From Planctomycetota bacterium (GTDB lineage Bacteria; Planctomycetota; GCA-002687715; CAIWVZ01), in NCBI GenBank assembly GCA_044222185.1, contig JBGANV010000002.1:1-64000 (forward strand): DNA of 64,000 nucleotides, written 5' to 3'. The position numbers and the translations under genes are program-made. This document shows, one piece after another, positions 27,288-64,000 of the stretch (position 1 is the stretch's first letter; the number at the start of each line of letters is the position of its first letter). Under the pieces are notes generated by a model. That model was not told the DNA's origin and did not search any database. It saw nothing but the letters and a program-made list of their open reading frames with translations.

Positions 27288-27591
27288 GCGAATCACTCGG
27301 TCGGGGATTGGCGCCGCGCCGACCACGTTCACTTCCGCACGCCATCGGGCACGTCAAGCACACGCTGGACCACGTCGCACTCAAGCCACGGGACAGGCGC
27401 GAGCCCTGGACGAACACCGATCGTTTCGTGTTCGACCGGGACGGTTTCGCCGCAGCGCCAGGGGCATCGGTTCGCGACGGAGGCGCCAGGAGGGGCAACG
27501 CCACCCCCGGAGCGCGATCGGAACGCCGGCCGAGCGCAGTCGAAACGCCTGCTTTTCCCAGTGAAACACCTGGTTCCCGCCGAACGGGAAC

Positions 27592-49395: not shown

Positions 49396-51672
49396 TCACC
49401 CTTCCGGCAGGTCGATCGTCGACGTCCACGTCTTGACCTCCGGGACCGCCGCAAGTTCCTCGTCATCCAGAACCATCACGCCGGGCAATTGGCCCGAGAT
49501 GATGGTTTGGATCTGGCGGCGCATCGATTCGTCGCGCACCAGGATGACCGGCATCCCGGCCGCGTGCTGATGACGTGGCATGTCCTTCGGTGACGCCGAC
49601 GTGGCGATGTAGGTCCCCAGGTGATTACACGGCTTGATGAACGCCCGGATGGCGTCGCGGACCAATGCGTTGTGGCCCCCACCGAGGCGGTTCAGGAGCG
49701 TGTGCTCGAGGCGGTACGCGTTCAGCGCGCCCGTCGGACCGACGTATCGCGAGAGCATGACGGGGAGCAGCTCACGTCGCACGATGGAGTAGGTCTTCTC
49801 GGCATCGCGCGCTTCGCGATTGGCGCCCTCGCGGCGGAACCTGGCGCGCAGGAACGCCTCGAGAATGCGCCCGCGATTGGCTTCCGTGAGAAAGATCTGG
49901 TCCCGCAGGCACATGCGAAGAACCTCGGTCGCCTCCGCCACGCCGGCAGCCTGCGCCGACGCCAGTGCGTCGAGCAACGCCCGGCCGAATTCCGGGAAGT
50001 CCGCTGCGGCGCGCCGCAGGAAGCCGTAGGCCTGCTCCGAATCCAACAGGTCGGCCGCACGCAGCGTCAGCGCGGATTCCAGATGGTCCAGGAGCACCTG
50101 GACCGGTGAGCGCACGAAACTCCCAGCAGGGTGCCCGCCGATCGGGTATGCCGCGGCCTCTCCCCAGGTCCCCGGTAGGGGCGCCGTCTCGGCAATCGCA
50201 TCGGCGAGCAAGGCGGCCGGGTCAGGGATTCGAGCAGCGAGGGAGCGATCCAACCGGATCGATCCGCGCGAGATGACGCCTCCGTTCAGCTCGATCACGT
50301 AGCTCGATCGTCCGGCCACCTGCGGAAACGCACGCTTCTCGATCCCGATCCGCTGGACCGGGAACCCGAGTTTTTCGCGCAAGTCCCGCCAGAGCACGGC
50401 GACCTGAAGCTCCGGACCGGCGATGTCAGGCCCATAGAACTGCAGGATCGTCTCTGGGAATTCGATCTTGTCGGGCGTGAGATCCCGGAACGCTCCGACG
50501 AGCATCAGGTGCAGCTCTGGTGGGACGACGAGCTTGATCGGCGTCGGCGCCGATTGCGGCTTGCGCGGCGTCGTGGCCGCAGCCTTCCCGACGGCCCCCG
50601 CCGGAGCTTCCGCGGTGGCGACCTGCCGACGCAGGGTGCGGAATCGATGAACGGAGAACCCGATGGCCATGGCTCCGAGAGCGGCGAACGGCACTGGGGG
50701 GAATCCCGTCACGGAGCTCGTGAGCGCGACCATCGTGAGAACGATTCCGACGAACATGACGGCGATGGGCTGATCGATGATCTGCCGCTTGATGTCGAAG
50801 GCTGCATTGCTGCTCGCGTCCTCGGTGGCGCGGACGCGCGTGACGAGCGCCGCAGCCGAGGCGGAGATGAGCAACGAGGGAACCTGGCTGACGAGCCCAT
50901 CGCCGATCGTGAGCAGCGTGTATTGGCGTGCCGCCTGGCCGATCGAGAGGCCCCCCTCGGAGACCCCGATCACGAGGCCTCCGATCACGTTCACCGCCGC
51001 GATGACGATTCCTGCGATCGCGTCGCCCTTGATGAACTTCATGGCACCTTCGAGGGCTCCGAAGAGACGGGCTTCCGCGCTGAGTTCGAAGCGGCGCGAC
51101 TTGGCTTCCGCTTCGGCCTTCTTGTCGGATGCACTCCGGGCCGTTTGAAGATCGGCTTCGATCGCCTGCTGCTTGAATGGCATGCCATCGAGGAAGAACC
51201 GGGCGGACGCGTCGGACGCGCGCTCGGCACCCTTCGAGATCACGATGAACTGGATCACGAGGAGCACGAGGAAGACGACCGTGCCCACGATGAAGTTGCC
51301 GCCGACGACGAACTCGCCGAACGTGGCGATGATCTCGCCGGCCCTGCCCTCGCCGAGGATCAACCGGGTCGTGGCGACGTTCAGGCCCAGGCGGAGCAGG
51401 GTCGTAAGCAGCACGAGTGTCGGGAGCGACGAGAACCGCGCCGCCTCGGACACCTGCGTCGCGACGACGAGGATCGTCAGCGACGCCGCCAGGTTGACCG
51501 CGATCAGGTAATCGATCATGCCGACCGGGATCGGCAGGACGAGCGCGATCAGGATGATCAGGACGAGGATCGGGAGCGCGGCCTCGCTTCCGAGCGCGAG
51601 GAACCGATCCACGGACTTGCGGAGACTCCCCTTCGCGCCCGGGGTGCTTGCCACTGAGACGGATCGAGACAT
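49396..51672 (-). CDS. Type III export-gate protein of the FHIPEP family (SctV/FlhA-like), divergent
   Basis: FSSLPTLVLLTTLLRLGLNVATTRLIL, GEFVVGGN, VISKGAER..ARFFLDGMPFKQ..GAMKFIKGDAIAG, TIGDGLVSQVPSLLIS; large cytoplasmic domain. Confidence 0.93.
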   Translation of the reverse strand: MSRSVSVASTPGAKGSLRKSVDRFLALGSEAALPILVLIILIALVLPIPVGMIDYLIAVNLAASLTILVVATQVSEAARFSSLPTLVLLTTLLRLGLNVATTRLILGEGRAGEIIATFGEFVVGGNFIVGTVVFLVLLVIQFIVISKGAERASDASARFFLDGMPFKQQAIEADLQTARSASDKKAEAEAKSRRFELSAEARLFGALEGAMKFIKGDAIAGIVIAAVNVIGGLVIGVSEGGLSIGQAARQYTLLTIGDGLVSQVPSLLISASAAALVTRVRATEDASSNAAFDIKRQIIDQPIAVMFVGIVLTMVALTSSVTGFPPVPFAALGAMAIGFSVHRFRTLRRQVATAEAPAGAVGKAAATTPRKPQSAPTPIKLVVPPELHLMLVGAFRDLTPDKIEFPETILQFYGPDIAGPELQVAVLWRDLREKLGFPVQRIGIEKRAFPQVAGRSSYVIELNGGVISRGSIRLDRSLAARIPDPAALLADAIAETAPLPGTWGEAAAYPIGGHPAGSFVRSPVQVLLDHLESALTLRAADLLDSEQAYGFLRRAAADFPEFGRALLDALASAQAAGVAEATEVLRMCLRDQIFLTEANRGRILEAFLRARFRREGANREARDAEKTYSIVRRELLPVMLSRYVGPTGALNAYRLEHTLLNRLGGGHNALVRDAIRAFIKPCNHLGTYIATSASPKDMPRHQHAAGMPVILVRDESMRRQIQTIISGQLPGVMVLDDEELAAVPEVKTWTSTIDLPEG

Positions 51673-51739
51673 GGATGAACCCCCCGCGCCCGTTCGTGGA
51701 CCCGATGCGGACCCGGAGCCCAAGCGCGACTCGAGACGT

Positions 51740-51767
51740 TGATCGCGTTCGGGCTCGCCGTGTTGCA
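51740..51767 (-). promoter_or_regulatory. ECF-type promoter for the sctV-like gene
   Basis: Minus strand TGCAAC-N16-CGATCA. Confidence 0.75.
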
Positions 51768-51769
51768 CG

Positions 51770-51797
51770 TGCAACGCCTCCGAGCCGACGACGATGA
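51770..51797 (+). promoter_or_regulatory. ECF-type promoter for the FHA gene
   Basis: TGCAAC-N16-CGATGA. Confidence 0.75.
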
Positions 51798-51857
51798 AGG
51801 GATGAGGCCCCGTCCCGGCCGGCGCGAACCATGCGCCGACGCCGACGGGAATACACC

Positions 51858-53408
51858 ATGGATCATTCCGACGCAGAAACGTGCCCGCCGTCACCGACGG
51901 TCGACTCGGGCGCCCCTCCTGGTCCTCTGTCCGCGCCAACACAACTGGCTCTGGATCAGTGCGCGAAAGCGACGCGGGGAGCCGTCCTCGTTCAAACGGA
52001 AGGGGCGAACCGGGGTCGCCGGATCGCTCTGACTCCGGGCGAGCACACGATCGGGCGGGCCACGTGCCATTCGATTCCGGTGGACCCAAATGTCGATCGC
52101 GCAGTGTCGTCCCGCCACGCTCGCCTCCTTTCGAGCGGCGATGCCTGGTGGATCGAAGACCTGGGATCCACGAACGGAACGCTGGTCGACGGAGTGCCGC
52201 TTCAGGGTGGCGCACACACCTTGCACCCCGGTGCGCGAATCGAGGTCGGCCGCTCGGTGGGAGGCGACGTCGCTGGCACCGTGGCGTTCACCTTCGAATT
52301 GGAAGGCGAAGTCGCCCAGGACGGGTTCCGTGCGGTGGACGCGCATCATTCCGCATCCGGTTCGGCGTCGGCACCGTACGCAGACGTGGGCATGGGTGTC
52401 GACGTTCCGCCGCCCCCCGCCATGGGCGTCGCGCCGTCGCCGCGACGGCCACGGTTCGCCGATCTCCGTCACGCCGTCGAAAAAGGCCTCGGCCGGATCG
52501 TCTCACTGCCGGCTCGCATCCGCATCGAGGGTCAGATTCGCGATGCGCGGGAGCGGCTGGCCCAATTGGCGCCTCAGGCTCAACCAGCCCTCGGGGCGCT
52601 GGGAGCAGCGCTTGCAATCGAGGCTCCGGACGCGGTGCGACGAACGCCCCAGGCCGGGGAGCTCCAGCGATGCTGCGACGAGGCCGCGACTCGGCGCGTC
52701 GCCCAGGATCAGCTCACCCGCGATCGCGCGGAAATCGCCGAGAAACATGCAGAGGAAATGGCGGGCCATGAGCTCGCGATCAACGAGGCGGAGGCCGTCG
52801 CCGAGGTCGCGCGACGCGCGTTCGCTGCGGCACGCACCGAAGCGTCGCGGGATGAACAGGCGGTGCGGACGTACCTCCGCGAAGTGCAGCCAGCGTTCGA
52901 CGCCGCCGCGGCTGGACTCCGGGAAGCGGCCGCGGTGGCCGGAGGCGCTCCGATCCCCGACGACCTCAACCAACGCCTGGCGGCGTTGAATGCTCACCTG
53001 TCGGTCTGCGAGCCCGCCGCGCGGCGACTCGGCGAGGCTCTGGTCGTGCCGGAGGCCGCAAGACTCGCTTCGCGCCGTACGGCCGACACGGCCGCCGCGG
53101 CGCTGCACGGCGCGGAACAACGTGTGCGCGAACGACGCGACCTCGCATCCGCGACGCGCGCGAGGCATGACGCCAGCATCCAGGCGTTGGAGACTCGCGA
53201 GACGGCGGCACGTCAGGCCCTCGACGCGATGGCGTCGCGGACAGCTGAGGTCCACGCCGAGCTCGGCCGCACCGTGTTCCGCCAACGCATCGCCGCGGCG
53301 CTCGGACTTCCGGCCTTCGAGGGTGCCAGAGCCGCGCATGCCGCTCTCGTCGAGCAGGAAGATCTGATCGACAAACTCACGGCCGAGCTCCGGGCACATG
53401 GGGGGTGA
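51858..53408 (+). CDS. FHA-domain protein with long Ala-rich coiled coil
   Basis: TIGR..VSSRHA..EDLGSTNGT (intact pThr-binding motifs), Pro-rich linker, helical C-terminal half. Confidence 0.88.
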   Translation: MDHSDAETCPPSPTVDSGAPPGPLSAPTQLALDQCAKATRGAVLVQTEGANRGRRIALTPGEHTIGRATCHSIPVDPNVDRAVSSRHARLLSSGDAWWIEDLGSTNGTLVDGVPLQGGAHTLHPGARIEVGRSVGGDVAGTVAFTFELEGEVAQDGFRAVDAHHSASGSASAPYADVGMGVDVPPPPAMGVAPSPRRPRFADLRHAVEKGLGRIVSLPARIRIEGQIRDARERLAQLAPQAQPALGALGAALAIEAPDAVRRTPQAGELQRCCDEAATRRVAQDQLTRDRAEIAEKHAEEMAGHELAINEAEAVAEVARRAFAAARTEASRDEQAVRTYLREVQPAFDAAAAGLREAAAVAGGAPIPDDLNQRLAALNAHLSVCEPAARRLGEALVVPEAARLASRRTADTAAAALHGAEQRVRERRDLASATRARHDASIQALETRETAARQALDAMASRTAEVHAELGRTVFRQRIAAALGLPAFEGARAAHAALVEQEDLIDKLTAELRAHGG

Positions 53409-53478
53409 GATACCCGGGTGCTGATGCGCGCGACTGCCGGGCCACCGATCGGCACAGAGGAATTCGGGGCAGGGTCGA

Positions 53479-53504
53479 TGCAACGGACGTTCGCGGAGAT
53501 CGCT
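53479..53504 (+). promoter_or_regulatory. Variant ECF-type promoter for the lipoprotein gene
   Basis: TGCAAC-N16-CGCT (one mismatch to CGAT). Confidence 0.4.
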
Positions 53505-53583
53505 TTGTGAATCAGAACGAAACCGTCCGCCACGCATACGGAGCGGTCGGTTGCTGAACCTCACTTCCATTTGGAGTAATTCG

Positions 53584-54195
53584 ATGAAGACCGGTCTCCT
53601 GGTGCGATTGACGGTGGCGGCGCTTGCGGTTCTTGGCACGCAGATCGTCGGTGGCTGCGTCTCGACGGAATACACTCAGACGCAGCAGGACGCGAGCACG
53701 GCAACGCCGATCGCCGGCGTTCAGGGTGTCGCAGTCATCGTCGAGTCGACGCCGTACAGCAACCAATTTGGACAAATAGCGCAAACCGAAGTCGAGGCCG
53801 CAATGAAGTCTCGTGGGTTCCGCGTGATGAACCAGAAGGCCATCAAGGACGCACTCGAGCACTTCAAGCTCCAGGAATCGGATCTCACGACGACGACCGG
53901 CCGAGCCCAGATCGGGGAGTTCATGAACGTCCAGGCCTTCGTCTACGTCGCGGTCACGGAGGCCTCGAACTTCCAGGAAACCGGTACCTGGCCCTTCCGT
54001 ATCGACCCGCCGATCCCGTCGGTAAGCGCATCGATTTCGATCAAGCTCACGAGCCAGGGGCAGGTCGAGAACCTCTGGGTCGACACGATCCGGAAGAAGT
54101 CTCAGGGCTCCGACCTCTCACGCCACGTCCAGATCACTGCCGATCAGCTGATGCGCGAGCGCTTCCCGTACCGCGCCGGCCCCGCCGCGGGCTGA
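53584..54195 (+). CDS. Lipoprotein with a CsgG/HfaB/FlgO-like domain
   Basis: Signal ending VGGC; VAVIV..EVEAAMKSRGFRVMNQKAIKDALEHFKLQES..AQIGEFMNVQAFVY pattern. Confidence 0.65.
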   Translation: MKTGLLVRLTVAALAVLGTQIVGGCVSTEYTQTQQDASTATPIAGVQGVAVIVESTPYSNQFGQIAQTEVEAAMKSRGFRVMNQKAIKDALEHFKLQESDLTTTTGRAQIGEFMNVQAFVYVAVTEASNFQETGTWPFRIDPPIPSVSASISIKLTSQGQVENLWVDTIRKKSQGSDLSRHVQITADQLMRERFPYRAGPAAG

Positions 54196-54304
54196 GATCA
54201 GGCGGGAACAGATCGCGCAACGATCGTCCCAATCGACGCCGAAACAGGCCCACCCTCGATGTGATCGACGGTGGGCCTCGTCATCTCCGCGACGTGCTAC
54301 CGCC

Positions 54305-54332
54305 CGCAACGCCCCACCGCCCCGAACGATCA
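54305..54332 (+). promoter_or_regulatory. ECF-type promoter for the MIIA-domain gene
   Basis: CGCAAC-N16-CGATCA. Confidence 0.78.
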
Positions 54333-54403
54333 ATCAGCATGCACCGGGAACGACCCGGGCGAGGCGGCGCCAATCGTGGATGCCGCGAGTCGAGGAGATC
54401 GCC

Positions 54404-55750
54404 ATGACGAACGTGAATCAGGTCAGCAGCGTCCGACGGCACGACATCGGTTTCCACCCCAAGCCCACGAGCCAACTGCAGGTCGGTGCAGGAACGATCG
54501 ACACGGGTCGATACCTGATCGAGATCCTGGGCCCTGGCGACGTGCGCGTGACGGATCGCACGAACAACACGAACTTCCGTGCCTGGGGTGATCCGCACAT
54601 CACGACCGGTGACAACGACCGTGCCCACTTCGAGGATGGACCGTTGACCATCGTCCTCCAGGACGGCACGCAGCTCACCTACGTGCCGACGGCGAAGGAC
54701 GCGAACGGGGTCGCGTGGCTCGACAAGCTCGCCGTCAAGCGGGGCAACGAAGCCGTGTGTGTCACGGACATCAAGACCGCTCCGAAGGTCGGTCAGGTCG
54801 GCCGCAACGCAGCCATGATCGACGGCTGCTTCGACCACGGCACTGTCATGTACGCTGGCGACCAGGTCGATGACCTGTTCTTCCAGGTTGACGGTCAGGA
54901 GCTGGTCGGCACCGATCCGCGCGGCGGTCAGTTCGGCGGCGAATGGGACCTGGATGGCCGCGGCGGAACGGCACCAACCTTCACGACTTCACCGATCCGC
55001 GGCACACCGTCGTTCCCGAACGACCCGGGCCGCCCGTGCGTTCTCCCACCGGCACCGCCGGCGATCTGGAACATGATCGAGAAGGGCCTCGCGGAACTCC
55101 TCCAGGGCGGACAGAACCCATTCGGCCACATGGACCCGCTGCGCGGGCTCGGCGCCCTTCTCATCCGCCAGTTGCTCCAGCAGTTCTGGTCGAACCTGGG
55201 CGGCGACGTGCCGTTCAAGCCGATCGGACCGCCGCAGAACGGCGGCTGCTTCGGACGCCCGGTTCATGCGCTGCGAGACTCTGCCTCGACCCCCGCGAAC
55301 GGCCAGGCGCCGGCGAATCTCGGAACGACGGGCTCCGTCGGGTCGAAGGGCAACTCGGTCGGCGGCAGCTCGGCCGGTGGGACCTCCGCGGCGGATGGCG
55401 TCACGTCGAACAACCGGGTCTACGGCGGAAAGTACTCGAGCAACGTCGACATCTTCACGCTCATCGCCATGATCCTTCACGACATGCAGGCCGACCTGGC
55501 GACCAAGGCGCAGGAACTCGCGAGCGTCTCGAACGAGATCAACACGCTCCGGGGCCAGTCGCCCCAGGGCGGCCAGCAGGCCGGCGGCGACACCACTCAG
55601 ATGTCGAACCTCGAGTCGAAGCGCAGCCAGCTCCTCTTCGAGATCGAGCAGCTCAAGCAGAAGATCACGGAGATGTCGGATCTGCGATCGAACATGTCGA
55701 AGACCGATCACGAGACCGCCATGACGATGATCCGGAACGTCGGGAACTGA
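54404..55750 (+). CDS. DUF1521/MIIA-like autocleavage-domain protein with a needle(SctF)-like C-terminal helix; candidate type III substrate
   Basis: GAGGAG SD; no signal peptide; RAWGDPH..LQDGTQLT; G/S/T-rich linker; C-terminus LLFEIEQLKQKITEMSDLRSNMSKTDHETAMTMIRNVGN. Confidence 0.8.
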   Translation: MTNVNQVSSVRRHDIGFHPKPTSQLQVGAGTIDTGRYLIEILGPGDVRVTDRTNNTNFRAWGDPHITTGDNDRAHFEDGPLTIVLQDGTQLTYVPTAKDANGVAWLDKLAVKRGNEAVCVTDIKTAPKVGQVGRNAAMIDGCFDHGTVMYAGDQVDDLFFQVDGQELVGTDPRGGQFGGEWDLDGRGGTAPTFTTSPIRGTPSFPNDPGRPCVLPPAPPAIWNMIEKGLAELLQGGQNPFGHMDPLRGLGALLIRQLLQQFWSNLGGDVPFKPIGPPQNGGCFGRPVHALRDSASTPANGQAPANLGTTGSVGSKGNSVGGSSAGGTSAADGVTSNNRVYGGKYSSNVDIFTLIAMILHDMQADLATKAQELASVSNEINTLRGQSPQGGQQAGGDTTQMSNLESKRSQLLFEIEQLKQKITEMSDLRSNMSKTDHETAMTMIRNVGN

Positions 55751-55807
55751 GCGAGCAGCGCCGGACGGCGGGGCGCTCGCCCCCTGCATCCCGAGGCGCG
55801 CGCGACA

Positions 55808-55834
55808 CCCACGGACGGCACTGCCGCCCGTGGG
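55808..55834 (+). terminator. GC hairpin after the MIIA gene
   Basis: CCCACGGACGGCACTGCCGCCCGTGGG; no U tract. Confidence 0.4.
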
Positions 55835-55887
55835 TGTCGGCATGTCAGGAGTCCTCTTCCGCGGGTGCAACCACTGGGGAATCCCAC

Positions 55888-55914
55888 TGCAACCAAGGGC
55901 CGCCGAAACGATCA
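55888..55914 (+). promoter_or_regulatory. ECF-type promoter for 55986..57221
   Basis: TGCAAC-N15-CGATCA; a second TGCAACCA lies 22 bp upstream at 55866. Confidence 0.7.
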
Positions 55915-55985
55915 CCAGGCAGTCGGTCGCAGCAACGTGCGCGATCGCGAATCACCGCCCATCAAGAGGACTGGGGAGAACGTCA

Positions 55986-57221
55986 ATGAGTTTCGGATTG
56001 GGAAGCCTGACCAAGGGGATACGGGACGTCGCGAAGGATGCCGTGGAATCAGTCGCTGGGAAAGCGGTCGACGCCGTGAAGGGAGTCGCGAAGGACGCGG
56101 CCAAGACGGTGGTGAAAGGCGGCCTCGCCTACGTCACCGGCGGCGCGTCGCTCCTCTTCGACAAGCAGATCGACAAAGCCATCGACAAGGGGATCGACAA
56201 GCTCGCCGATCGAGGCGAGAAGTACCTCGACCGCGCGGCCGACAAGCTGTTCGACGACGTCGAGGGACAGTTCGTGAAGCGGTCGAACGGTTCTGGCACC
56301 TCGGCTGACCTGCCATCGAACGATGAGCTGCGCCAGTCGTTCGTGGGCGACGTGCGAGGACTCATCGCGCCCCAGACTGGGGGCGCCGGCGTCGCGAAGA
56401 ACATCAACCCCGCCGCGGCAGCGTTCGTCGACGCGATCAAGCCGGCGGATGGAAAGAACATCAGCGAGGAACAGCTCTTCGCACTCGGCGCGTTCATCCG
56501 CACGGCCGCGCTCGCCGGACCCGCGGCGGCCCAGAAGTTCCTGGAGCAGTTCGCGGCACAGGCGTCGAAGCTCGGCGCAGGTGGCGGATCGGTGCCCGTC
56601 GAGAAGGCTACGGTCGCCGCGCTGCAGGACATGGTGAAGTCCGGCGCACTCCCGGCGGAACAGGCGGACAGGATCTACTCCGAAGCCTTCGCCGGCGCTC
56701 AGCTCGATCGCGACGCGTCGCAACTGTTCGACGGGACTGGCGGACCCAACGACCCGACGCAAGCCACGGCCCCGCTCGAGCAGGGACTGGGGAGCCTCTT
56801 CGATCGCCTGAACGGGTTCGGCAATGGGCAATCCGCAGCGCCACGCAAGCTCGCCGAGGCCAGGCCGGACGCGCGGCCGACGACCGCTCCCGGCGGCTCG
56901 GCGCCGGGATCGCGGGGCGGCATTCGCGTCGACGGTCCCCAGGGTTTCCTGTTCAAGCCGGTCTCCGACAGCGACGGGAAGCTCGTGGTGCTCCTCCCGA
57001 AGAAGTTCAGCGGAAAGGTGAAGAGCCTCGTCATCCGCGACTCGACGGGGAAGGTGATCGACAAGGGCCGTGCAACCGGTATCGGCAACGGCGATCGCGA
57101 GCACTTCCGCTTCAAGAAGGCGGGTGCGAGCTATCCCCCGAACGTCACCGTCGAGGTCACGCTCGAAGACGGAACGACGAAGAGCTGGCCCATCGGCGAC
57201 CCCTCGCAGCGCTACGACTGA
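55986..57221 (+). CDS. Hypothetical protein: amphipathic helical N-terminus, helical core, small beta C-terminal domain
   Basis: Purine-rich SD region, typical codon usage, no signal peptide; repeats such as DKAIDKGIDKLAD. Confidence 0.85.
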   Translation: MSFGLGSLTKGIRDVAKDAVESVAGKAVDAVKGVAKDAAKTVVKGGLAYVTGGASLLFDKQIDKAIDKGIDKLADRGEKYLDRAADKLFDDVEGQFVKRSNGSGTSADLPSNDELRQSFVGDVRGLIAPQTGGAGVAKNINPAAAAFVDAIKPADGKNISEEQLFALGAFIRTAALAGPAAAQKFLEQFAAQASKLGAGGGSVPVEKATVAALQDMVKSGALPAEQADRIYSEAFAGAQLDRDASQLFDGTGGPNDPTQATAPLEQGLGSLFDRLNGFGNGQSAAPRKLAEARPDARPTTAPGGSAPGSRGGIRVDGPQGFLFKPVSDSDGKLVVLLPKKFSGKVKSLVIRDSTGKVIDKGRATGIGNGDREHFRFKKAGASYPPNVTVEVTLEDGTTKSWPIGDPSQRYD

Positions 57222-57240
57222 GCGGCCTTTCGCGCCAGCC

Positions 57241-57263
57241 GGGCCGTCGATCCGCGACGGCCC
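57241..57263 (+). terminator. Perfect 9-bp hairpin after 55986..57221
   Basis: GGGCCGTCG-ATCCG-CGACGGCCC. Confidence 0.45.
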
Positions 57264-57328
57264 GCTCGCGCGATGTGAGCGACCAGGTCCTCCACCGGCA
57301 CACCTTTCTCCGAGTCCCCGGACGTTTC

Positions 57329-57356
57329 CGCAACAAGTCCGCCATGGCTGCGATGA
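57329..57356 (+). promoter_or_regulatory. ECF-type promoter for the membrane kinase
   Basis: CGCAAC-N16-CGATGA, ending 10 nt before the ATG. Confidence 0.72.
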
Positions 57357-57366
57357 GAGGGGCATC

Positions 57367-60300
57367 ATGACCTGGGATCAAAACACAGACTCCATCCTCG
57401 TCCGAGTCCCCGAAGCCAACGGATACAAGGTCCTCGAGGACTGCATCCTGTACTCACGCATCGGTGAGGGCGGATTCGGCGCCGTCTACCAGGCGTTCCA
57501 CATGCGCATGGAGATGGACGTCGCCGTCAAATGCATGAAGCCGCAACTCGACGCGGGCCCCGCCCTCCGGGCCGAGCTGCAGAAGCGCTTCGTTCGCGAG
57601 GCGCAATTCGGAGCCCGGATCACCCATCAGAACCTGGTGGGAATCAAGGACGTCCGGACCGCTCACGACGTCGACTACATCGTGATGGAGTACATCCGCG
57701 GCGAGAACGCCGAGCAGCGTCTCCGCCGCAAGCGCGTGCTCTCGGTCCCTGAAGTCACGTCGATCGTCCGGTTCGCTGCGCTCGGCCTCGCGGAAGTCCA
57801 CAGCCGGACGAGCGAAGACGGAGAGCCGTGCGCTCATCGCGACGTCAAACCCCAGAACATCATGGTGGCGACGACGGGACGCGTGAAGATCCTCGATCTG
57901 GGACTCGTGCGCTCGCGCCAGGCCAACTCGAGTCATACGTCCTTGGGAATGGGCGCCGCCGGCACACCGCCTTACATGCCACCGGAGCAGTTCGACAGCT
58001 TCGCATCGGCCGGTCCAGCGGCCGACGTCTGGGCCCTGGGCGCGACGCTGTACTCGCTCCTGACCGGCGAGGCGCCGTTCCGCGGCAGCGAACACGAGAT
58101 CAGGAAGGCCGTCACCACCGGGGCCTTCCCCGACGTGGCGGCGAAGCGTGCGGATGTCCCTGCGGCACTTCGCGCCATCATCGAACGATGCACGCGAAAA
58201 GATCCGTCGGAGCGGTTCCGGACGGCCGCCGAGTTCGCGGTCGCTCTCGACCCGTTCGCCACGCTTCAGGAGGCTGACCTGGCAGATCAGAATGCCGGAC
58301 GCGACGGTGATCCGTCGCCGTTGGGCCGACCGTCAGCGGAGACGGTGGCATCCATCCAGCACGAGATCGGTGCCGCACACACGCCGCCATTCCCCGCGAC
58401 GTTCCCGCCGACGGTGCCGCCACCGCCCCATCGATCGCCCGTCGCCCGCGCAGCCGCGATCCTCTGCGTGATCCTCTCAGCGGTCGGCGGTTACCTGTGG
58501 CTTGCGGCCGACGAGGGGTGGCCACCGTTCCGGCCGTCGCCATCGCCGAACCCGCATCCAGGCCCGACGCCGGTCGTCGAGAAGTCGTTCCGAACCGTGG
58601 CGATGAAAGACCTGTGCGACGTCTCGATCGGCCAGGCGGACGGTACGCGCAGCGGGCCGGAGAGCCGACCGATGCAGCGCTTCGCGGCGCTCGAGGCTCC
58701 CAGCCTGCCGCCCTTCACTGCCGAGCAGGTCGTGGTGAACGTCAAACGTCACCGTGCTGCGACGCGGATCTCCGTGACCGTTGGATTGAACCGCGCTCAG
58801 CTGACGCCGAACCCAAAACCCGACCACGACGAGTACACGGTCGACATCCCCGTGGGGACGACGAGCCTCCACCTGGAGGCCGTCTTCGATGATCCAACGG
58901 AGCATCTCGACGCCTCGGCAACGCTATCGCTCACTCGGGAACGAGCGACGGTCCCGTTCGACACGCTCGCGCGAATCGAGTGGCGGTGCGAGCCAGGCGC
59001 GGCGTACGGCGCACCACCCGCAACGACGACGGCGGAGTCACTCGACGTCCGTATCGTCCCCGCAAGCCCCGCGGCCGATCTGACGCACGTGACGCTGGAA
59101 TGCGCTGGCACGCCGATCCCGCTCGATGCTCTGGCTGCCGGTACGTCCGAGGCTCGCATCCCGCTTGGCGCTGCCGGAAGGAAGACGGTCACATGCTTCG
59201 TGTCGACCGCGACGAAGGAGGCGACATCCACCGTCGTGATCGAGCGCTCCGAGCCCGAGCGTCGCCCCGCCGCGCCGATCGCCTTGGCGCCGAAGACTCC
59301 GTTGAAGTCGAATGCGGACTCGTGCGAGGTCCTGCTCGAGGGGCCCCCTGAGAAAACGGTCGTGACCCTCGTGACGCTACGTGGGCGAACGACGGTGAAA
59401 ACGCCCATGTCGGAACCGTTCGACCGGACACGCGTCCAGTTGTCCTGCCGCGTGAGCGGGCAGACGCCCATGGTTCTCGACGACAAGGCCGCCCGCTCCA
59501 CGCTCGCGCTCGCTCAAGCCGATTCGGCATTGTCGACGAGTGCCGACGTGGAGGTCGTCGCGAACTGGCACGACGTCCCCCTCGCCCACATGACGGCAAC
59601 CATTCACGTGGATCGTCAGCCACCGACGTTCCAGTTCCGGGAGTGGGAAGACATCGACGGCCTGAAACTGGCGATGTCCTATCTCGAGGGAAATCCGCGA
59701 CTCACGGCGCGCCTTCACGTCTCCGAGCCGATCGAGGTCGTCGATCCACCCTCCGACTCGACGATCGCCCTGGTCAACCCGACGACGATCCAGGTCGGGA
59801 CTCCGCTCCTGCCGTCAGGAGCGTCAGTGTCGGTATCGGTGCGCGACGCGGCTGGAAACGAGGCCCGGTTCGATCGCACCTTCGAAGACGCACTCGCCTA
59901 CGCACGCAAGCGCCTGCCGCTCGGCGATGATCCGGCCAAGGGTCGGCGGTTCCTCGTCCTGCCGTTCTTGCCCGAGAAGCCAGCGAAGCAGTCCATCGAA
60001 CGCCGCGCATTCGCGCCGGTCTTCGATCCGAACGCGGTGAAGGGCGAGTACGAAGCGGATCGCATCACGACCGAGTGTCGTGACGAAGTGGTCCGGCGGC
60101 TGCGCGAACTCGTGCCGAACGTGGAGCTCATCGACAACCGTGAGGTCGACTCGATCCTGGGCGTCATCGACCCGCCAAGCCCCGGGGTGATCAATGCGGC
60201 CGCCCTGAATGGCAGCTTCGACCATGGGGTCGCAGCCCGACTCGCGGTGATCCTCCGGGCAGACGGCTGGATCCAGGGATCGTTCAAGCTCCTGACGGAT

Positions 60301-60591
60301 GGCGCACCGGAGAACGTGAGCTACCGCGTCGACGCGCAACTCACCCTCACCCTGTACGCCGTGAACGCGGACGGGACCGCCACCGAGCGTGGCCGCGTCG
60401 ACCTGCGAGCCAAGGGGGCCACGAGCAATCAAAATCGCCGCGACATCGTCGACGTCGTCCGGCCGGAGGCCGTTCGAAATGCTCTGCAAGTCATGATCGG
60501 CAAATATATTAGGAAGCTCGACACCGCCGAGCTTCCGCCGCTCCATCTGACGGATTTTCCAAGGACTCTCGGAGACGCCACGAAGCGATGA
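57367..60591 (+). CDS. Transmembrane Ser/Thr kinase with extracytoplasmic Ig-like segments and a C-terminal CsgG/FlgO-like domain
   Basis: GEGGFG, VAVK, HRDVKPQN, DLG, GTPPYMPPEQ; TM AAILCVILSAVGGYLW; VDRQPP..VRDAAGN; FLVLPF..ELIDNREVDSIL..LRADGWIQGS. Confidence 0.9.
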   Translation: MTWDQNTDSILVRVPEANGYKVLEDCILYSRIGEGGFGAVYQAFHMRMEMDVAVKCMKPQLDAGPALRAELQKRFVREAQFGARITHQNLVGIKDVRTAHDVDYIVMEYIRGENAEQRLRRKRVLSVPEVTSIVRFAALGLAEVHSRTSEDGEPCAHRDVKPQNIMVATTGRVKILDLGLVRSRQANSSHTSLGMGAAGTPPYMPPEQFDSFASAGPAADVWALGATLYSLLTGEAPFRGSEHEIRKAVTTGAFPDVAAKRADVPAALRAIIERCTRKDPSERFRTAAEFAVALDPFATLQEADLADQNAGRDGDPSPLGRPSAETVASIQHEIGAAHTPPFPATFPPTVPPPPHRSPVARAAAILCVILSAVGGYLWLAADEGWPPFRPSPSPNPHPGPTPVVEKSFRTVAMKDLCDVSIGQADGTRSGPESRPMQRFAALEAPSLPPFTAEQVVVNVKRHRAATRISVTVGLNRAQLTPNPKPDHDEYTVDIPVGTTSLHLEAVFDDPTEHLDASATLSLTRERATVPFDTLARIEWRCEPGAAYGAPPATTTAESLDVRIVPASPAADLTHVTLECAGTPIPLDALAAGTSEARIPLGAAGRKTVTCFVSTATKEATSTVVIERSEPERRPAAPIALAPKTPLKSNADSCEVLLEGPPEKTVVTLVTLRGRTTVKTPMSEPFDRTRVQLSCRVSGQTPMVLDDKAARSTLALAQADSALSTSADVEVVANWHDVPLAHMTATIHVDRQPPTFQFREWEDIDGLKLAMSYLEGNPRLTARLHVSEPIEVVDPPSDSTIALVNPTTIQVGTPLLPSGASVSVSVRDAAGNEARFDRTFEDALAYARKRLPLGDDPAKGRRFLVLPFLPEKPAKQSIERRAFAPVFDPNAVKGEYEADRITTECRDEVVRRLRELVPNVELIDNREVDSILGVIDPPSPGVINAAALNGSFDHGVAARLAVILRADGWIQGSFKLLTDGAPENVSYRVDAQLTLTLYAVNADGTATERGRVDLRAKGATSNQNRRDIVDVVRPEAVRNALQVMIGKYIRKLDTAELPPLHLTDFPRTLGDATKR

Positions 60592-60645
60592 GAAGCGGAC
60601 GCGGCGGCTGCCGCGCCCCCCGCCCGAGAGAATTTCGCACCGACG

Positions 60646-60672
60646 AGCAACGACCCGTTCCCGATTGCGATT
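60646..60672 (+). promoter_or_regulatory. ECF-type promoter upstream of the ECF sigma gene (possible autoregulation)
   Basis: AGCAAC-N16-CGATT. Confidence 0.62.
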
Positions 60673-60895
60673 GGAGGATGTCATGCAAACATCCACCCCC
60701 GAACTCGACGTTCGTTCTGGCAACCGAAAGAAGTCCGTCCGAGACCCGCGCAAAGTGGACGGATCGGCACGAGGACTGGGGGCGCAGCTGACCCTCCCCG
60801 CGGGGAGCCCGAAAATGACTTCGGCCAATCGCAACGACGACGGCACGGTGCCATGTCTTCCCGGCACGGGACGAGGCACGACTCCGGGAGACGTC

Positions 60896-61525
60896 ATGCC
60901 TCCCAAGGCCGCGACGCCGATCAACACACATGCCGCATTCATCGAGGCGAAGGCGGGTTCCTGGGATGCCTTCTATGAGCGAGTCCGCCCGATCCTCATG
61001 GATGCCCTCCGCGGCGTACGCCTGCCCTCCGACTTCGACGCCGAAGACGTGATCCAGATGACGATGTACGAGGCGCTCATCGGGATCGAATCCTGGGTCG
61101 ACGTGAATCCTCGGGCATGGATCTGCTCCATTCTCCGGAACACGGTCATCGACGGTTGGCGCAAGTACAACGCCCGGAAGCGCACGGCAAACCGAGCCAT
61201 GTCGCTGAACGACGTCGAGGCCGTCGGCGACATCGAAGGGCGCGACATCGAGCGTCCCAGCGCCATCGCCCGCTTCAACGAAATGAAGGCCGCCCTCGAT
61301 GTCGTGATGAAGCAACTCAAGCCCGAGTACCTCGAGATCCTGCGACTCCGCGAGGCGGAAGGGACCGATTACGCCGAGCTCGCCGCGCTCCTGAACCTCA
61401 CCGAGAGCGGCGCCCGCGCCCGGGTGCTGCGCGCGCGCCGTCGGCGCGCCGAGCTGCTGAGTCGCATGCTCCCCGACCTCCCGATCGACAACGTCTTCAA
61501 CGAGACCACGACGTCGGCCGGATGA
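60896..61525 (+). CDS. ECF-type sigma factor (alternative start 60683)
   Basis: DAEDVIQ, AWICSILRNTVIDGWR, LKPEYLEILRLR..YAELAALL..ARARVLRAR; GGGAG SD before ATG 60896. Confidence 0.9.
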   Translation: MPPKAATPINTHAAFIEAKAGSWDAFYERVRPILMDALRGVRLPSDFDAEDVIQMTMYEALIGIESWVDVNPRAWICSILRNTVIDGWRKYNARKRTANRAMSLNDVEAVGDIEGRDIERPSAIARFNEMKAALDVVMKQLKPEYLEILRLREAEGTDYAELAALLNLTESGARARVLRARRRRAELLSRMLPDLPIDNVFNETTTSAG

Positions 61526-61713
61526 CGCTGGGGCCGCACTCCCGGCCCAGACGCGCCGCGGCTGCCCGCGCCGCGTTTTCCCCCGCCGACTCGCATCTTC
61601 CGCCATCCTGATTATCCTCTCCGGCGCCCCGGTCGAACCCGGGGCCCGCCCGGTTCAGGCCGAGGGCACCGACCGTCGACCTCGAGCCGATCGGACACGA
61701 CGGAGTGGAATCA

Positions 61714-64000
61714 ATGAAGCCCAGCGACCCCGCGGCGGCCGGCGGGAACGATGACCCTTCGCGCGAAACCGCCAGTTCGATCGGTGCGTCCGCACCCGGT
61801 GCCGCGGAGATCCGCGCCGAGCTCCGCCAGCGGTACACCGAACTCCTGCTCGGTTTGAACGCGACCGCTCCGCAGACGCCAGGCGCCGAGCTCTCTCGAA
61901 CTCAGCCCCCGACGGAGGCTCAGGGTGACGGAGGGATCATCGTGCCTGCGCCCGGGGTCCGCCTGGGCGACATCGTGCTCGAAGCGGAACTCGGCCACGG
62001 TGGCATGGGCGTCGTCTTCAAGGCGCGCGACCTGCGCCTCGACCGGCCCGTCGCCGTGAAGTTCCTGCTCCCGGAACGCGCAGCGCGCGAGAAGGCGACA
62101 GAACGATTTCGCCGTGAAGCCACCATCGGCGCAAAGCCCGGGATCCCCGGCGTCTGTCGCGTCCTCGATTTCGGTGAGTTCCGCGGCCTCCACTACATCG
62201 TCATGGAGTTCATCGAGGGCGCGACGCTGCATCGACATCTCGTCGATGCCGCGAAGACGCCACTCGATGCACGATCACCGGTCGATCGCGCAGATCGCGC
62301 CGGCGAGGCGCCATCGGCGACGACGCTGCCGCTGGAGACGGGGACTCCATCGTCCAAGACGGCGGTGCCAACTGCCCCTGATGCATCGACGACGCAATCG
62401 GACTCGCCCGCCACCCAGCTCGATCGCGGCATCCACTGGATCGAACAGGCCGCCTTGTCCGTGCACGCGTGCCACGAGCACGGCGTCATCCACCGGGATC
62501 TCAAACCGTCGAACATCATGATTCGCAGCGACGGCGTCCCGGTCGTCCTCGATTTCGGCCTCGCCTTCGACTCCCAGTTCGATGGAACGAGCCGGCTGTC
62601 GACGAGCGGCCACCCCATGGGTACGCCCGAGTACATGGCGCCGGAGCAGGTCGAGGGACGCCTGGATGCGATCGATCGCCGCACCGACGTCTATGCGCTG
62701 GGCGTGATCCTCTACGAATGGTTGACGCTGAAGCGCCCCTTCTCCGCCGCGACGCCGCAGGCCTGCTACTACCGGATCGTCAACGAAGCGCCCACCGATC
62801 CAAGGGCGGTGCGGCCGGGGATCGCGGCCGACCTCTCCGCGGTCTGCCTGAAGGCGATGGCGAAGCGGCCGGACGATCGCTACGCGACGGCAGCCGCTTT
62901 TGCGCGGGATCTCCGGCACTTCCTGCGCGGCGAGCCGACGACGGCCCGCCCGCCGACGACGACCCAGCAGTTGATCCGACGGGTGAGGAAGTGGCGGTGG
63001 CAGTTCACCGCGACCGCCCTTGCGGTGGTCGCTCTCGCCCTCGCGTTCAGGCCCGGGTCGAGCGGTCCTTCACCCACGATCGTCCAAGCGCGCGAGCGCA
63101 CCCGAACCGCGAGGCTTCAGTATGCGAATCAAGACTACGCCGGCGCGGCCGAGTCCTTCGCGAAAGCCGTCGAGGTGCTCCGAACGGATCCGAGCATGAC
63201 GCCGGACAACGAGGAGCTACTGAGCGTTCGACTCAACCTCGCTCAAGCCCTCGCATCGTCGAAGAAAATCGATCAAGCGGGCGTCGTCATCGACGAGGTG
63301 CTCGCGACGGCGGAACGCAAGCTCGGCCCGAGCGCGCGCTTCGTTCTCCAAGCCCGCCTCACCAAGGCGGTCGTGGTGCGTGCACTCGAAGGCCCCGAGG
63401 CGTCGCTCCCCATCCAGCAGGCCGCGATCGACGGCCTCGCCAAGATCTTGCCAGCCGACGACGAAGTCCTCCTGAACGGTCGCGGCGACCTCGCAGCAAC
63501 GGAACACCTCCTCGGGCACCTGGACGTCGCGTTGCGAATCCAGCAGGACGAGGTGCTCCCTGGCTTGCAGCGTCTTCGCGGCCCGGACGCAATGGACGTT
63601 TTGGGCCTCCAAGTCAACATCGCGGGCACTCTCGTGATGCTCGGCCGCTTCGCAGAAGCAGAACGCCTCTCGGCTGAAGTCATCCCCAAACTCGCCGACG
63701 CGGGGGTTTCGGAGAAACGGGCCGTACGGCAGGCCGCCCTGGGCACACGCGCGCTCGCCCTCTACAAGCTCGGCCGGTTCGCCGAAGCCAGACAGATTCA
63801 GGTGGATCTCGTCGGAGTCCGCGAACGGAACGAGGGCCCACAGAGTCAACAACTCGCGGCGTCTCGCCTGCAGCTCGCTCTCACCCTGATGCAGCTGGAT
63901 GACGTCGAAGGGGCGGCGGCCCAGCTTGCTGCGATCGCCGACGCCTTCCCCTCCGTGATCTCGCCGTCGAATCCCGACCTTCATGACCTGCGGGAGTCGG
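61714..64000 (+). CDS. Ser/Thr kinase with TM and TPR repeats; runs off the window end (absent from the ORF track)
   Basis: Read from the sequence: MKPSDPAA..ELGHGGMGVVFKARD..VAVK..HRDLKPSN..DFG..GTPEYMAPEQ..TPR-like helices; no stop seen before 64000. Confidence 0.93.
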   Translation, partial: MKPSDPAAAGGNDDPSRETASSIGASAPGAAEIRAELRQRYTELLLGLNATAPQTPGAELSRTQPPTEAQGDGGIIVPAPGVRLGDIVLEAELGHGGMGVVFKARDLRLDRPVAVKFLLPERAAREKATERFRREATIGAKPGIPGVCRVLDFGEFRGLHYIVMEFIEGATLHRHLVDAAKTPLDARSPVDRADRAGEAPSATTLPLETGTPSSKTAVPTAPDASTTQSDSPATQLDRGIHWIEQAALSVHACHEHGVIHRDLKPSNIMIRSDGVPVVLDFGLAFDSQFDGTSRLSTSGHPMGTPEYMAPEQVEGRLDAIDRRTDVYALGVILYEWLTLKRPFSAATPQACYYRIVNEAPTDPRAVRPGIAADLSAVCLKAMAKRPDDRYATAAAFARDLRHFLRGEPTTARPPTTTQQLIRRVRKWRWQFTATALAVVALALAFRPGSSGPSPTIVQARERTRTARLQYANQDYAGAAESFAKAVEVLRTDPSMTPDNEELLSVRLNLAQALASSKKIDQAGVVIDEVLATAERKLGPSARFVLQARLTKAVVVRALEGPEASLPIQQAAIDGLAKILPADDEVLLNGRGDLAATEHLLGHLDVALRIQQDEVLPGLQRLRGPDAMDVLGLQVNIAGTLVMLGRFAEAERLSAEVIPKLADAGVSEKRAVRQAALGTRALALYKLGRFAEARQIQVDLVGVRERNEGPQSQQLAASRLQLALTLMQLDDVEGAAAQLAAIADAFPSVISPSNPDLHDLRES

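Follow-up and report, generated by a model that had tools for sequence, protein, structure and literature searches.

Does the divergent export gate of the SctV/FlhA family found in this planctomycete stand alone, or does it belong to a larger machine, and of what kind? Its gene (49396-51672, minus strand) lies in a stretch of 64,000 nucleotides from a Planctomycetota bacterium (GenBank assembly GCA_044222185.1, contig JBGANV010000002.1), hereafter the window, which is positions 1-64000 of contig C6 in genome G000; coordinates of the whole locus are given on C6. A preliminary description of the window had taken the gate and seven neighbours, namely genes for an FHA protein, a small lipoprotein, a MIIA-domain protein, a 411-residue protein, a membrane Ser/Thr kinase, an extracytoplasmic function (ECF) sigma factor and a tetratricopeptide repeat (TPR) kinase, for one fragment of a dispersed, non-flagellar machine similar to type III secretion systems (T3SS). 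All eight genes were confirmed in place by a codon-usage gene call and by Pfam and NCBIfam scans. The machine is, however, not dispersed. The missing core genes form one minus-strand array directly beyond the window, 4-18 kb past its end, in which SctJ, L, N, R, S, T and U are encoded in a single operon, and there is therefore one locus. It is contiguous, spans about 38 kb (C6 ~49.4-87.8 kb) and has its left third in the last 14.6 kb of the window; the G+C content of the window is about 68%, and its composition shows no break at these genes. We are highly confident that the machine is T3SS-like and non-flagellar, and the locus probably encodes a complete-looking example of a rare, deep-branching and mostly planctomycetal type. 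It is a kind of type III cluster previously undescribed, with its own promoter signal and kinase genes and without the usual outer-membrane pore.

The gate itself is a highly divergent protein of 758 residues that matches the FHIPEP family (PF00771) over its full length (E 3.6e-136). Against the equivalog models it scores about half of what is demanded, with 388 bits to FlhA (TIGR01398, cut-off 772) and 380 bits to SctV (cut-off 692). Identity to its closest database relative is 54%, and for no other does it exceed 38%. The same genome encodes a flagellar FlhA paralogue on contig C7 (829 bits to the Pfam model) together with FlhB and FliP, and whole-genome searches find FHIPEP, FlhB/SctU and FliP/SctR twice each, once on C7 with high scores and once, in divergent form, on C6 at 49, 68 and 71 kb. 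The canonical flagellar set sits on C7 and C10, with one match to FliG_C (C7), four to rod and hook families (C10 and C7) and two to FliMN_C (C7). None of these flagellum-specific families (PF01706, PF00460, PF01052) is matched on C6, nor did Pfam find any flagellum-specific family among 40 proteins of the locus and its flanks, seven of which were also scanned with a looser threshold. With an FlhA score of half the cut-off and no flagellar neighbours, identification of the gate as an ordinary flagellar FlhA was rejected.

The window holds no further sct gene, as had been noted, since the next ones start 4.4 kb past its end. Twenty genes of C6 64-82 kb were scanned with Pfam and NCBIfam, which name SctU, SctT, SctS, SctR, FliO, SctN, FliH/SctL and SctJ, and more weakly FliJ and SctI, between C6 68 and 79 kb. 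Read along the minus strand, the array begins with a TPR lipoprotein (80741-82123), a 101-residue protein, a 99-residue needle-like protein (80063-80362), a TPR-like protein of 163 residues (79535-80026) and a 78-residue protein. It continues with an SctI-like protein (78619-79074; E 0.006 and 0.023), SctJ (77609-78622), which has a lipobox and a C-terminal transmembrane segment, a 307-residue protein, FliH/SctL (75951-76664) and the ATPase SctN (74554-75954), with Walker A present. After a weak FliJ-like (stalk) protein and proteins of 276 and 349 residues follow FliO (71388-71864; TIGR03500, E 1e-10), SctR, SctS, SctT and finally SctU (68443-69612), with its NPTH site. The export-apparatus families (PF00771, PF01312, PF00813, PF01313 and PF01311) are all matched above their cut-offs, and all core proteins fall far below equivalog cut-offs. 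SctJ scores 42 bits to PF01514, above the cut-off, and matches TIGR02544 (E 3e-12) better than FliF (E 2e-4). The best model for SctN is TIGR02546 (358 bits), with 346 bits to the FliI/YscN subfamily model (cut-off 379.5).

In gene content and order the array resembles classical injectisomes (Ysc, SPI-1/2, Hrp and chlamydial), which likewise have SctV/U/R/S/T/N/L/J in the order F-(chaperone)-I-J-(K)-L-N-O-(P)-(Q)-R-S-T-U, an SctJ lipoprotein with a C-terminal transmembrane segment and an SctU with NPTH. Similarly, small TPR-like proteins adjoin the needle-like gene as needle co-chaperones do. It differs from them in having FliO and in lacking SctC, a recognizable SctQ and a canonical SctD, in place of which only FHA-containing proteins are present. 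Two features of SctN may be recorded here. There is an insert after the Walker A region, and the PF18269 (T3SS_ATPase_C) annotation is absent from this protein and its three nearest relatives and present in 106 of the 120 matches listed.

The neighbourhood of the gate is conserved. Genome G020, from the same order, repeats the gene set and order: TPR lipoprotein, needle-like, TPR-like, SctJ and SctN genes; ECF sigma, membrane kinase, FHA and FHA-transmembrane-trypsin genes; FliO, SctRSTU, a gene for the MIIA-tail fusion, a 354-residue protein gene and SctV, with two TPR kinases flanking the locus. Counterparts of the MIIA, 411-residue, kinase, ECF, FHA and TPR kinase genes thus lie in a T3SS locus there too. 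Syntenic loci occur in G043 and G336, which are from other families, and the MIIA-tail gene directly follows sctU in all three of these loci. Closer relatives are metagenomic, with SctV 54% and SctN 69% identical; the needle-like gene is on the contig of the latter and the MIIA-tail gene on that of the former. In a set of 40 relatives, non-self FHIPEP matches reach 38% identity at best, which is no better than a typical flagellar FlhA, and a second gate is clear in G020 only. A scan of metagenome contigs with SctN gave 80 loci, all at most 48% identical, and did not recover the known 69% identical relative; a scan of genome contigs with SctV confirmed no relative. Near-identical DNA was found in sludge and bioreactor metagenomes of several studies.

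A number of observations weigh against so complete a reading. Among the nine ubiquitous core proteins SctCJNQRSTUV, taken as a benchmark from the excerpted text of Abby and Rocha (2012; PMC3459982), SctC and SctQ were not found. The genome contains eight secretin-domain genes, none of them on C6, and none scores above 105 bits against the SctC model (cut-off 238); a secretin may be borrowed from another system. No SpoA domain (PF01052) was detected in the locus, the only matches in the genome being the two flagellar genes on C7, and for the 349-residue protein in the SctQ position neither Pfam, the PDB nor the database offers a relative, while its match to the protein in the same position in G020 reaches E 0.077. 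The matches that name SctI are weak. The 99-residue protein does not itself match the needle family PF09392, and its AlphaFold model has a single helix (residues 53-97, predicted local distance difference test score (pLDDT) >90) after a disordered Gly-rich half, where classical needle subunits have a helix-turn-helix hairpin of about 80 residues; it therefore seems needle-family-like and not a canonical SctF. The DUF1521 score of the MIIA protein is borderline, at 23.9 bits for a cut-off of 23.6. In the RNA libraries of two studies, five short contigs agree with the lipoprotein and MIIA genes at 100% identity and may be a weak hint of expression, contaminating DNA being a possible source; the parts of the window without such cover are uninformative.

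The trees belong on the same side of the balance. In a tree of 38 SctV/FlhA rows the FlhA clade (support 100) includes the C7 FlhA of this genome, and the injectisome clade (support 99) includes Myxococcaceae, Chlamydiales and other SctV. In a third, planctomycete-rich group the gate and its 54% identical relative join with a Shimodaira-Hasegawa-like approximate likelihood-ratio support of 99 on a branch of length 1.7. The free tree places the gate outside the FlhA clade, but approximately unbiased (AU) tests leave the placement undecided, rejecting neither union of the gate pair with the FlhA clade (p 0.45) nor that with the SctV clade (p 0.35). For SctN the tree collapses to a polytomy, and rooting it with F1-ATPase subunits was uninformative, since the outgroup branches are very long, at about 7.6 changes per site. 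On present sequences the gate appears unsettled between the flagellar, injectisome and third groups, and its affinity with the third would rest mainly on synteny and common accessory genes.

Could the locus then be a relic undergoing decay, or another flagellar export apparatus with no secretion function? The undetectable SctC and SctQ, the very long branches of SctV and SctN and the tolerance of the AU test for a sister position to FlhA would all fit such a reading. It is nevertheless very improbable. Every gene called in the locus has an intact open frame with the codon use typical of the genome, catalytic and cleavage motifs are retained, and four genomes share gene set and order at protein identities of 33-55%. 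Two genomes keep a dedicated promoter motif, and the locus has no flagellum-specific gene, the full flagellar set being elsewhere. The reading as a non-flagellar, T3SS-like machine, already proposed from the window, is borne out by the conserved neighbours of the gate, by the SctR/S/T/U/N/J/L genes found on C6 and by the separate flagellar set.

Secretin-less systems are known from Myxococcus xanthus and its relatives (the non-flagellar or needleless T3SS*; PMC3459982, PMC12075869 and PMC10433427). The present locus resembles these in having no secretin in the locus, in keeping a FliO homologue (PMC12403147, in part) in belonging to a free-living, kinase-rich environmental bacterium and in not being an obvious injector into eukaryotic hosts. 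The myxobacterial systems are described as lacking SctF, whereas here an SctI-like protein, a small needle-family protein and a MIIA-needle-tail fusion are encoded. Moreover, the free tree has Myxococcaceae SctV inside the injectisome clade and apart from the gate (union with that clade as a whole is not rejected by the AU test), and the present locus has a dedicated sigma-type regulon and its own kinases. Assignment to the Myxococcales type was rejected on the needle-like and SctI-like genes and on the separate SctV, although the lack of a secretin matches.

Within the parts of PMC3459982 available, the 2012 census places non-flagellar T3SS only in Proteobacteria, Chlamydiae and Verrucomicrobia and lists Planctomycetes for flagella only; the same authors proposed a secretin-less, SctF-bearing ancestor of injectisomes. 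FliO in non-flagellar systems is known from Myxococcota and some Pseudomonadota, in a text whose accessible portion does not contain 'Planctomyc' (PMC12403147). Neither 'T3SS' nor 'secretion system' occurs in a 2025 review of the phylum. A literature search found no paper on a planctomycetal injectisome; the supplementary tables of PMC3459982 and PMC12403147, which were outside the search, may list such loci. For the origin of the injectisome from the flagellum, a system that has FliO and needle-family subunits but no secretin is directly relevant. It is an unlikely possibility that the locus, together with its relatives in G020, G043, G336 and the metagenome contigs, represents a third primary type III branch beside flagella and injectisomes. 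Such a branch would preserve the state proposed by Abby and Rocha for the ancestor of injectisomes, secretin-less and FliO-retaining, with a filament built from needle-family helices, the end of which would be a MIIA-needle fusion that cleaves itself on a Ca2+ trigger. If this were true, cleavage of the fusion would add a step of maturation that is not known from any T3SS.

What, then, would the machine export? The MIIA protein (54380-55750, plus strand) has an N-terminal MIIA/DUF1521 domain (PF07481) with a GDPH site at 54587-54598, and its tail (55598-55747) is a needle-family C-terminal helix. The C-terminal 50 residues are paralogous to the 99-residue protein (BLASTP E 2e-9); a GDPH protein with a needle-like tail had been recognized from the window. 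Relatives of the protein reach E 6e-13 to DUF1521, and GDPH is present in both this protein and that of G020. With a profile built from five such tails, 382 representative proteins reach E <= 0.001; most have about 100 residues and are matched at the extreme C-terminus. Two of 101 members of this tail family match PF09392 (T3SS_needle_F; best E 1.1e-5), which is the commonest family among them. In the PDB the profiles pick out one chain from a T3SS needle/chaperone complex (E ~0.05), which is the sole match of the family profile and the top of three weak matches of the five-tail profile; direct PDB sequence searches with the 99-residue, MIIA and 349-residue proteins gave nothing useful. Among the longer tail-bearing proteins four of 24 carry DUF1521, and single ones match the SipB or SseC translocator families. 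By these profile comparisons the C-terminal helix of the 99-residue protein belongs to a large unannotated family predicted to be distantly related to needle proteins. Of 401 Planctomycetota genomes sampled, 14 have the family, and none of ten representatives looked up has a functional name (all are 'hypothetical protein' or unnamed). The locus offers a name and a context for a large group of 'hypothetical' proteins of about 100 residues (382 representative clusters).

Upon Ca2+-induced folding the MIIA domain cleaves after the Asp of GDPH (PMC6506597, excerpt). Proteins with DUF1521 and GDPH encoded in a T3SS cluster are described there from Bradyrhizobium (NopE1 and NopE2) and Vibrio coralliilyticus (VIC_001052). 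The present protein, known from sequence, differs in that its MIIA domain is N-terminal and fused to a needle-family polymerization helix. In the three other loci its gene has a fixed place after sctU, which suggests a structural part and not a host-directed effector. We tentatively regard the fusion as a secreted, putatively self-cleaving component of the needle end, while recognizing that this is the less probable outcome. In the mechanism proposed, the export apparatus would secrete the SctI-like and needle-like subunits and the fusion; on meeting extracytoplasmic Ca2+ the latter would fold and cleave between GD and PH, and the fragment left over could attach to the end of the filament by its needle-type helix. 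This gives a new context to the MIIA domain, which was so far known from effectors only.

How is the locus switched on? The upstream regions have in common the motif (T/C)GCAAC-N15/16-CGAT(C/G/T)(A/G), and GCAAC-N15/16-CG[AC]T precedes seven of the eight window genes, the exception being the TPR kinase. The gate and the FHA gene are divergently transcribed (49396-51672 on the minus and 51831-53408 on the plus strand), as had been described, from a promoter pair at 51740-51797 with palindromic -35 boxes GTTGCACGTGCAAC (matches at 51742-51766, minus, and 51771-51795, plus). The remaining motifs, all on the plus strand, lie before the lipoprotein gene (53480-53504, with a looser -10 element CGCT), the MIIA gene (54306-54332), the gene for the 411-residue protein (55889-55914, as before its G020 orthologue), the membrane kinase gene (57330-57356) and, as a strict match, directly before the ECF gene (60647-60673), where autoregulation is possible. 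The window has 14 loose matches where 3.59 +/- 1.88 are expected, a number reached in none of 100 shuffles, and eight of the 14 fall in 51.7-60.7 kb. Over the 7.08 Mb of the genome the strict pattern is matched 132 times. Twelve of these matches are in C6 49-88 kb (0.73 expected, about 16-fold enrichment), and the densest 20-kb bins genome-wide are all in the locus. Only 15 of the 132 are intergenic, correctly oriented and within 250 bp of a called gene; eight of these 15 are in the locus, and two further locus motifs (FHA and ECF) missed the filter only through crude start calls. The motif stands before at least 12 of the transcription units here, and elsewhere in the genome before almost none. 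The impression that one promoter motif precedes nearly all of these genes is thereby upheld, and it is likely that the locus forms a dedicated sigma regulon.

The proposal that the motif would lead to missing components elsewhere did not hold. Of the seven motif-bearing genes checked outside the locus, one encodes an ECF sigma factor, another encodes a CarboxypepD_reg/Ig-rich protein and the others match no family significantly; none is a T3SS or secretin gene. A strict motif at 27495-27520 precedes a 504-residue protein gene (27592-29106, no Pfam family), which may be an outlying member of the regulon. Another (C6 623684-623710) stands before a further ECF sigma gene (623034-623645), which may be a regulon member or a cross-talking paralogue. 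In G020 the motif precedes the orthologous TPR-lipoprotein, needle-like, MIIA (loose pattern) and 354-residue protein genes, with proteins only 33-50% identical; the matches in G043 and G336 rest on the looser pattern and are weak evidence.

Two locus-encoded sigma factors could read this motif. The first is the ECF-type protein (60683-61525, plus strand; PF04542, PF08281, TIGR02937), which has an N-terminal extension of about 90 residues and an intact DAED in sigma2.2. Given a dedicated regulon, this protein is its sigma factor with a likelihood somewhat above even, and is favoured because the motif stands before its own gene and because an ECF sigma is encoded in the G020 locus. The second (C6 87009-87794) is a 261-residue protein that matches the FliA/WhiG subfamily models best, far below their cut-offs (52 bits for 190), and is preceded by the gene of a small FHA protein with a C-terminal transmembrane segment. 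Were this protein to read the motif, sigma-28-style control would have been kept from a flagellar ancestor. A homologue (28% identity, E 1e-16) adjoins sctV in G336, with a loose motif about 110 bp upstream of sctV, although a loose pattern in DNA of 55% G+C could arise by chance. A loose variant also lies before the FHA-sigma pair at C6 ~86.1 kb. The -10 consensus of sigma-28 promoters is GCCGATAA, which the CGAT core of the motif resembles, whereas the 'AAC' of its -35 element is typical of ECF promoters. Finally, G020, whose locus includes an ECF sigma, keeps the motif before four orthologous genes, and no homologue of the FliA-like sigma was seen there in the 52 kb examined. With the strict match directly before the ECF gene, these points make control by the FliA-like protein unlikely. 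An alternative sigma encoded in the locus, most probably the ECF protein, would then turn on the whole regulon including itself.

A regulon of this type has precedents. HrpL is an ECF-type sigma with one promoter box before most T3SS operons of Pseudomonas syringae; the present regulon shares the layout of one ECF-type sigma and one box, and differs in the box itself and in showing kinases and FHA proteins instead of a sigma-54/HrpRS cascade, none of which was seen here. The pairs EcfK-PknS of the Xanthomonas citri type VI secretion system (T6SS) and EcfP-PknT similarly have an ECF sigma beside a transmembrane Hanks kinase (PMC13147305, excerpt), here near a secretion system plausibly switched on by the sigma. 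With its single motif and single locus, the system lends itself to simple tests of secretion under sigma and kinase control, and since the organism recurs in activated-sludge metagenomes of several studies, material exists.

Do the kinases feed into this control? The membrane Ser/Thr kinase, ECF sigma and TPR kinase named in the preliminary description all have clear family matches. The membrane protein (57367-60591, plus strand) is a Hanks-type kinase (PF00069, E 1.5e-44) with one transmembrane segment (359-382) and about 690 extracytoplasmic residues, and is 41% identical over the kinase domain to a kinase within the G020 locus. The TPR kinase (61705-64188, plus strand, running past the window end) has 827 residues, matches PF00069 (E 8.4e-38) and TPR families, and is about 37% identical to the two TPR kinases that flank the G020 locus. 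Three FHA proteins are encoded in the locus (51831-53408, 82404-84254 and 86197-86994). The first (plus strand, 525 residues) matches PF00498 (E 1.2e-14) and the YscD cytoplasmic domain PF16697 (E 1.3e-10) and has a long Ala/Arg/Glu-rich, coiled-coil-like tail; no hydrophobic or transmembrane segment was found in it, and its start was set at 51831 because the FHA domain is otherwise truncated. The second has an SctD-like layout of FHA-like domain, transmembrane segment and periplasmic part, with a protease domain replacing the ring-building motifs.

In the scheme envisaged, the membrane and TPR kinases with the three FHA proteins, as phosphothreonine readers, would relay envelope or contact signals into the sigma step, into assembly or into both. 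Three observations tell against it. No kinase, ECF or FHA match was found in 40 kb of the G043 locus; G336 has a kinase and a FliA-like sigma, and no ECF or FHA match; and sigma2.2 reads DAED here and TAED in the aligned G020 protein, against the ECF43 consensus QTTA (PMC13147305, in part). According to the same excerpt, ECF43 sigmas, including EcfK, have lost the acidic DxxD of sigma2.2. The present protein was therefore not assigned to ECF43: despite the kinase neighbour, it keeps DAED where members of that group have uncharged residues with a conserved Thr in place of DxxD; it differs from EcfK and EcfP in this and in its long N-terminal extension. Among the three other loci, kinases are found in two, and ECF and FHA proteins in one each. 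We therefore reasonably infer that phosphorylation control is plausible for this planctomycete order and is not a property of the whole lineage, and kinase input into the present system is an evenly balanced proposition.

Kinases and FHA proteins may also act downstream of transcription. PpkA and Fha1 act post-translationally on the H1-T6SS of Pseudomonas, and by analogy the proteins of the present locus might govern assembly or firing and not the sigma factor. There are three FHA proteins in the locus, the FHA-transmembrane-trypsin-like one is conserved beside the SctQ-position gene in G020, and an ECF sigma that retains DAED needs no phospho-switch of the ECF43 type. On the other hand, the G043 locus has no FHA or kinase match and that of G336 no FHA match, which argues that the module is not a general part of the machine, and no phosphatase was identified. 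A purely post-translational role seems rather unlikely.

Two window genes lie outside these arguments. The small lipoprotein (53551-54195, plus strand, 214 residues, lipobox GGC in its translation) had been called CsgG-like, which stands at the level of the clan and no further. Its language-model features score 0.96 to LpoB/CsgG/GNA1162-like lipoprotein clusters (Atlas), but Pfam gives no match even at E 5, CsgG (PF03783) included, and nothing points to a CsgG pore. A CsgG curli channel was rejected on the missing PF03783 and on the length, pore-forming members having about 260 residues. A paralogous relationship to the kinase C-terminal domain was also discarded, BLASTP finding nothing and the Atlas a weak lead only.

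The 411-residue protein (55986-57221, plus strand) has no family match and is a candidate substrate. Described earlier as helical, it shows, in an AlphaFold model of low confidence (mean pLDDT 55.6), a helical N-terminal part and an immunoglobulin (Ig)-like beta domain at the C-terminus. Foldseek gave no match at E <= 0.001 and generic Ig-like matches to the C-terminal domain only. The protein is 39% identical to the 354-residue protein encoded between the MIIA gene and sctV in G020, and full-length homologues occur in two of 401 Planctomycetota genomes. The Ig-like domain alone (about 100 residues) adjoins Ser/Thr kinases at G122:C156 and G270:C155; as no T3SS gene was present in the 29 and 13 kb fetched there, it was rejected as a T3SS marker.

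Further genes lie at the flanks of the array. Downstream of sctU are three proteins of unknown family and then a protein with collagen repeats and a phage tail collar. The protein directly downstream (C6 67731-68360, 209 residues, no family match) has its own strict motif promoter and is a candidate effector; a C-x-R-H-D stretch in it may resemble phospholipase A2 active sites. The collagen-repeat protein (C6 64248-65636, 462 residues, collagen triple-helix repeats and phage tail collar), whose gene lies between that of the TPR kinase and the operon end, might be a surface fibre or a substrate. On the other flank of the array lie the FHA-transmembrane-trypsin-like protein, an FGE-sulfatase-like protein, the third FHA protein, the second sigma factor and a further TPR kinase. 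Near the right flank of the locus an astacin protease of 1220 residues (C6 91319-94981) carries FG-GAP, TIG and lamin-tail domains.

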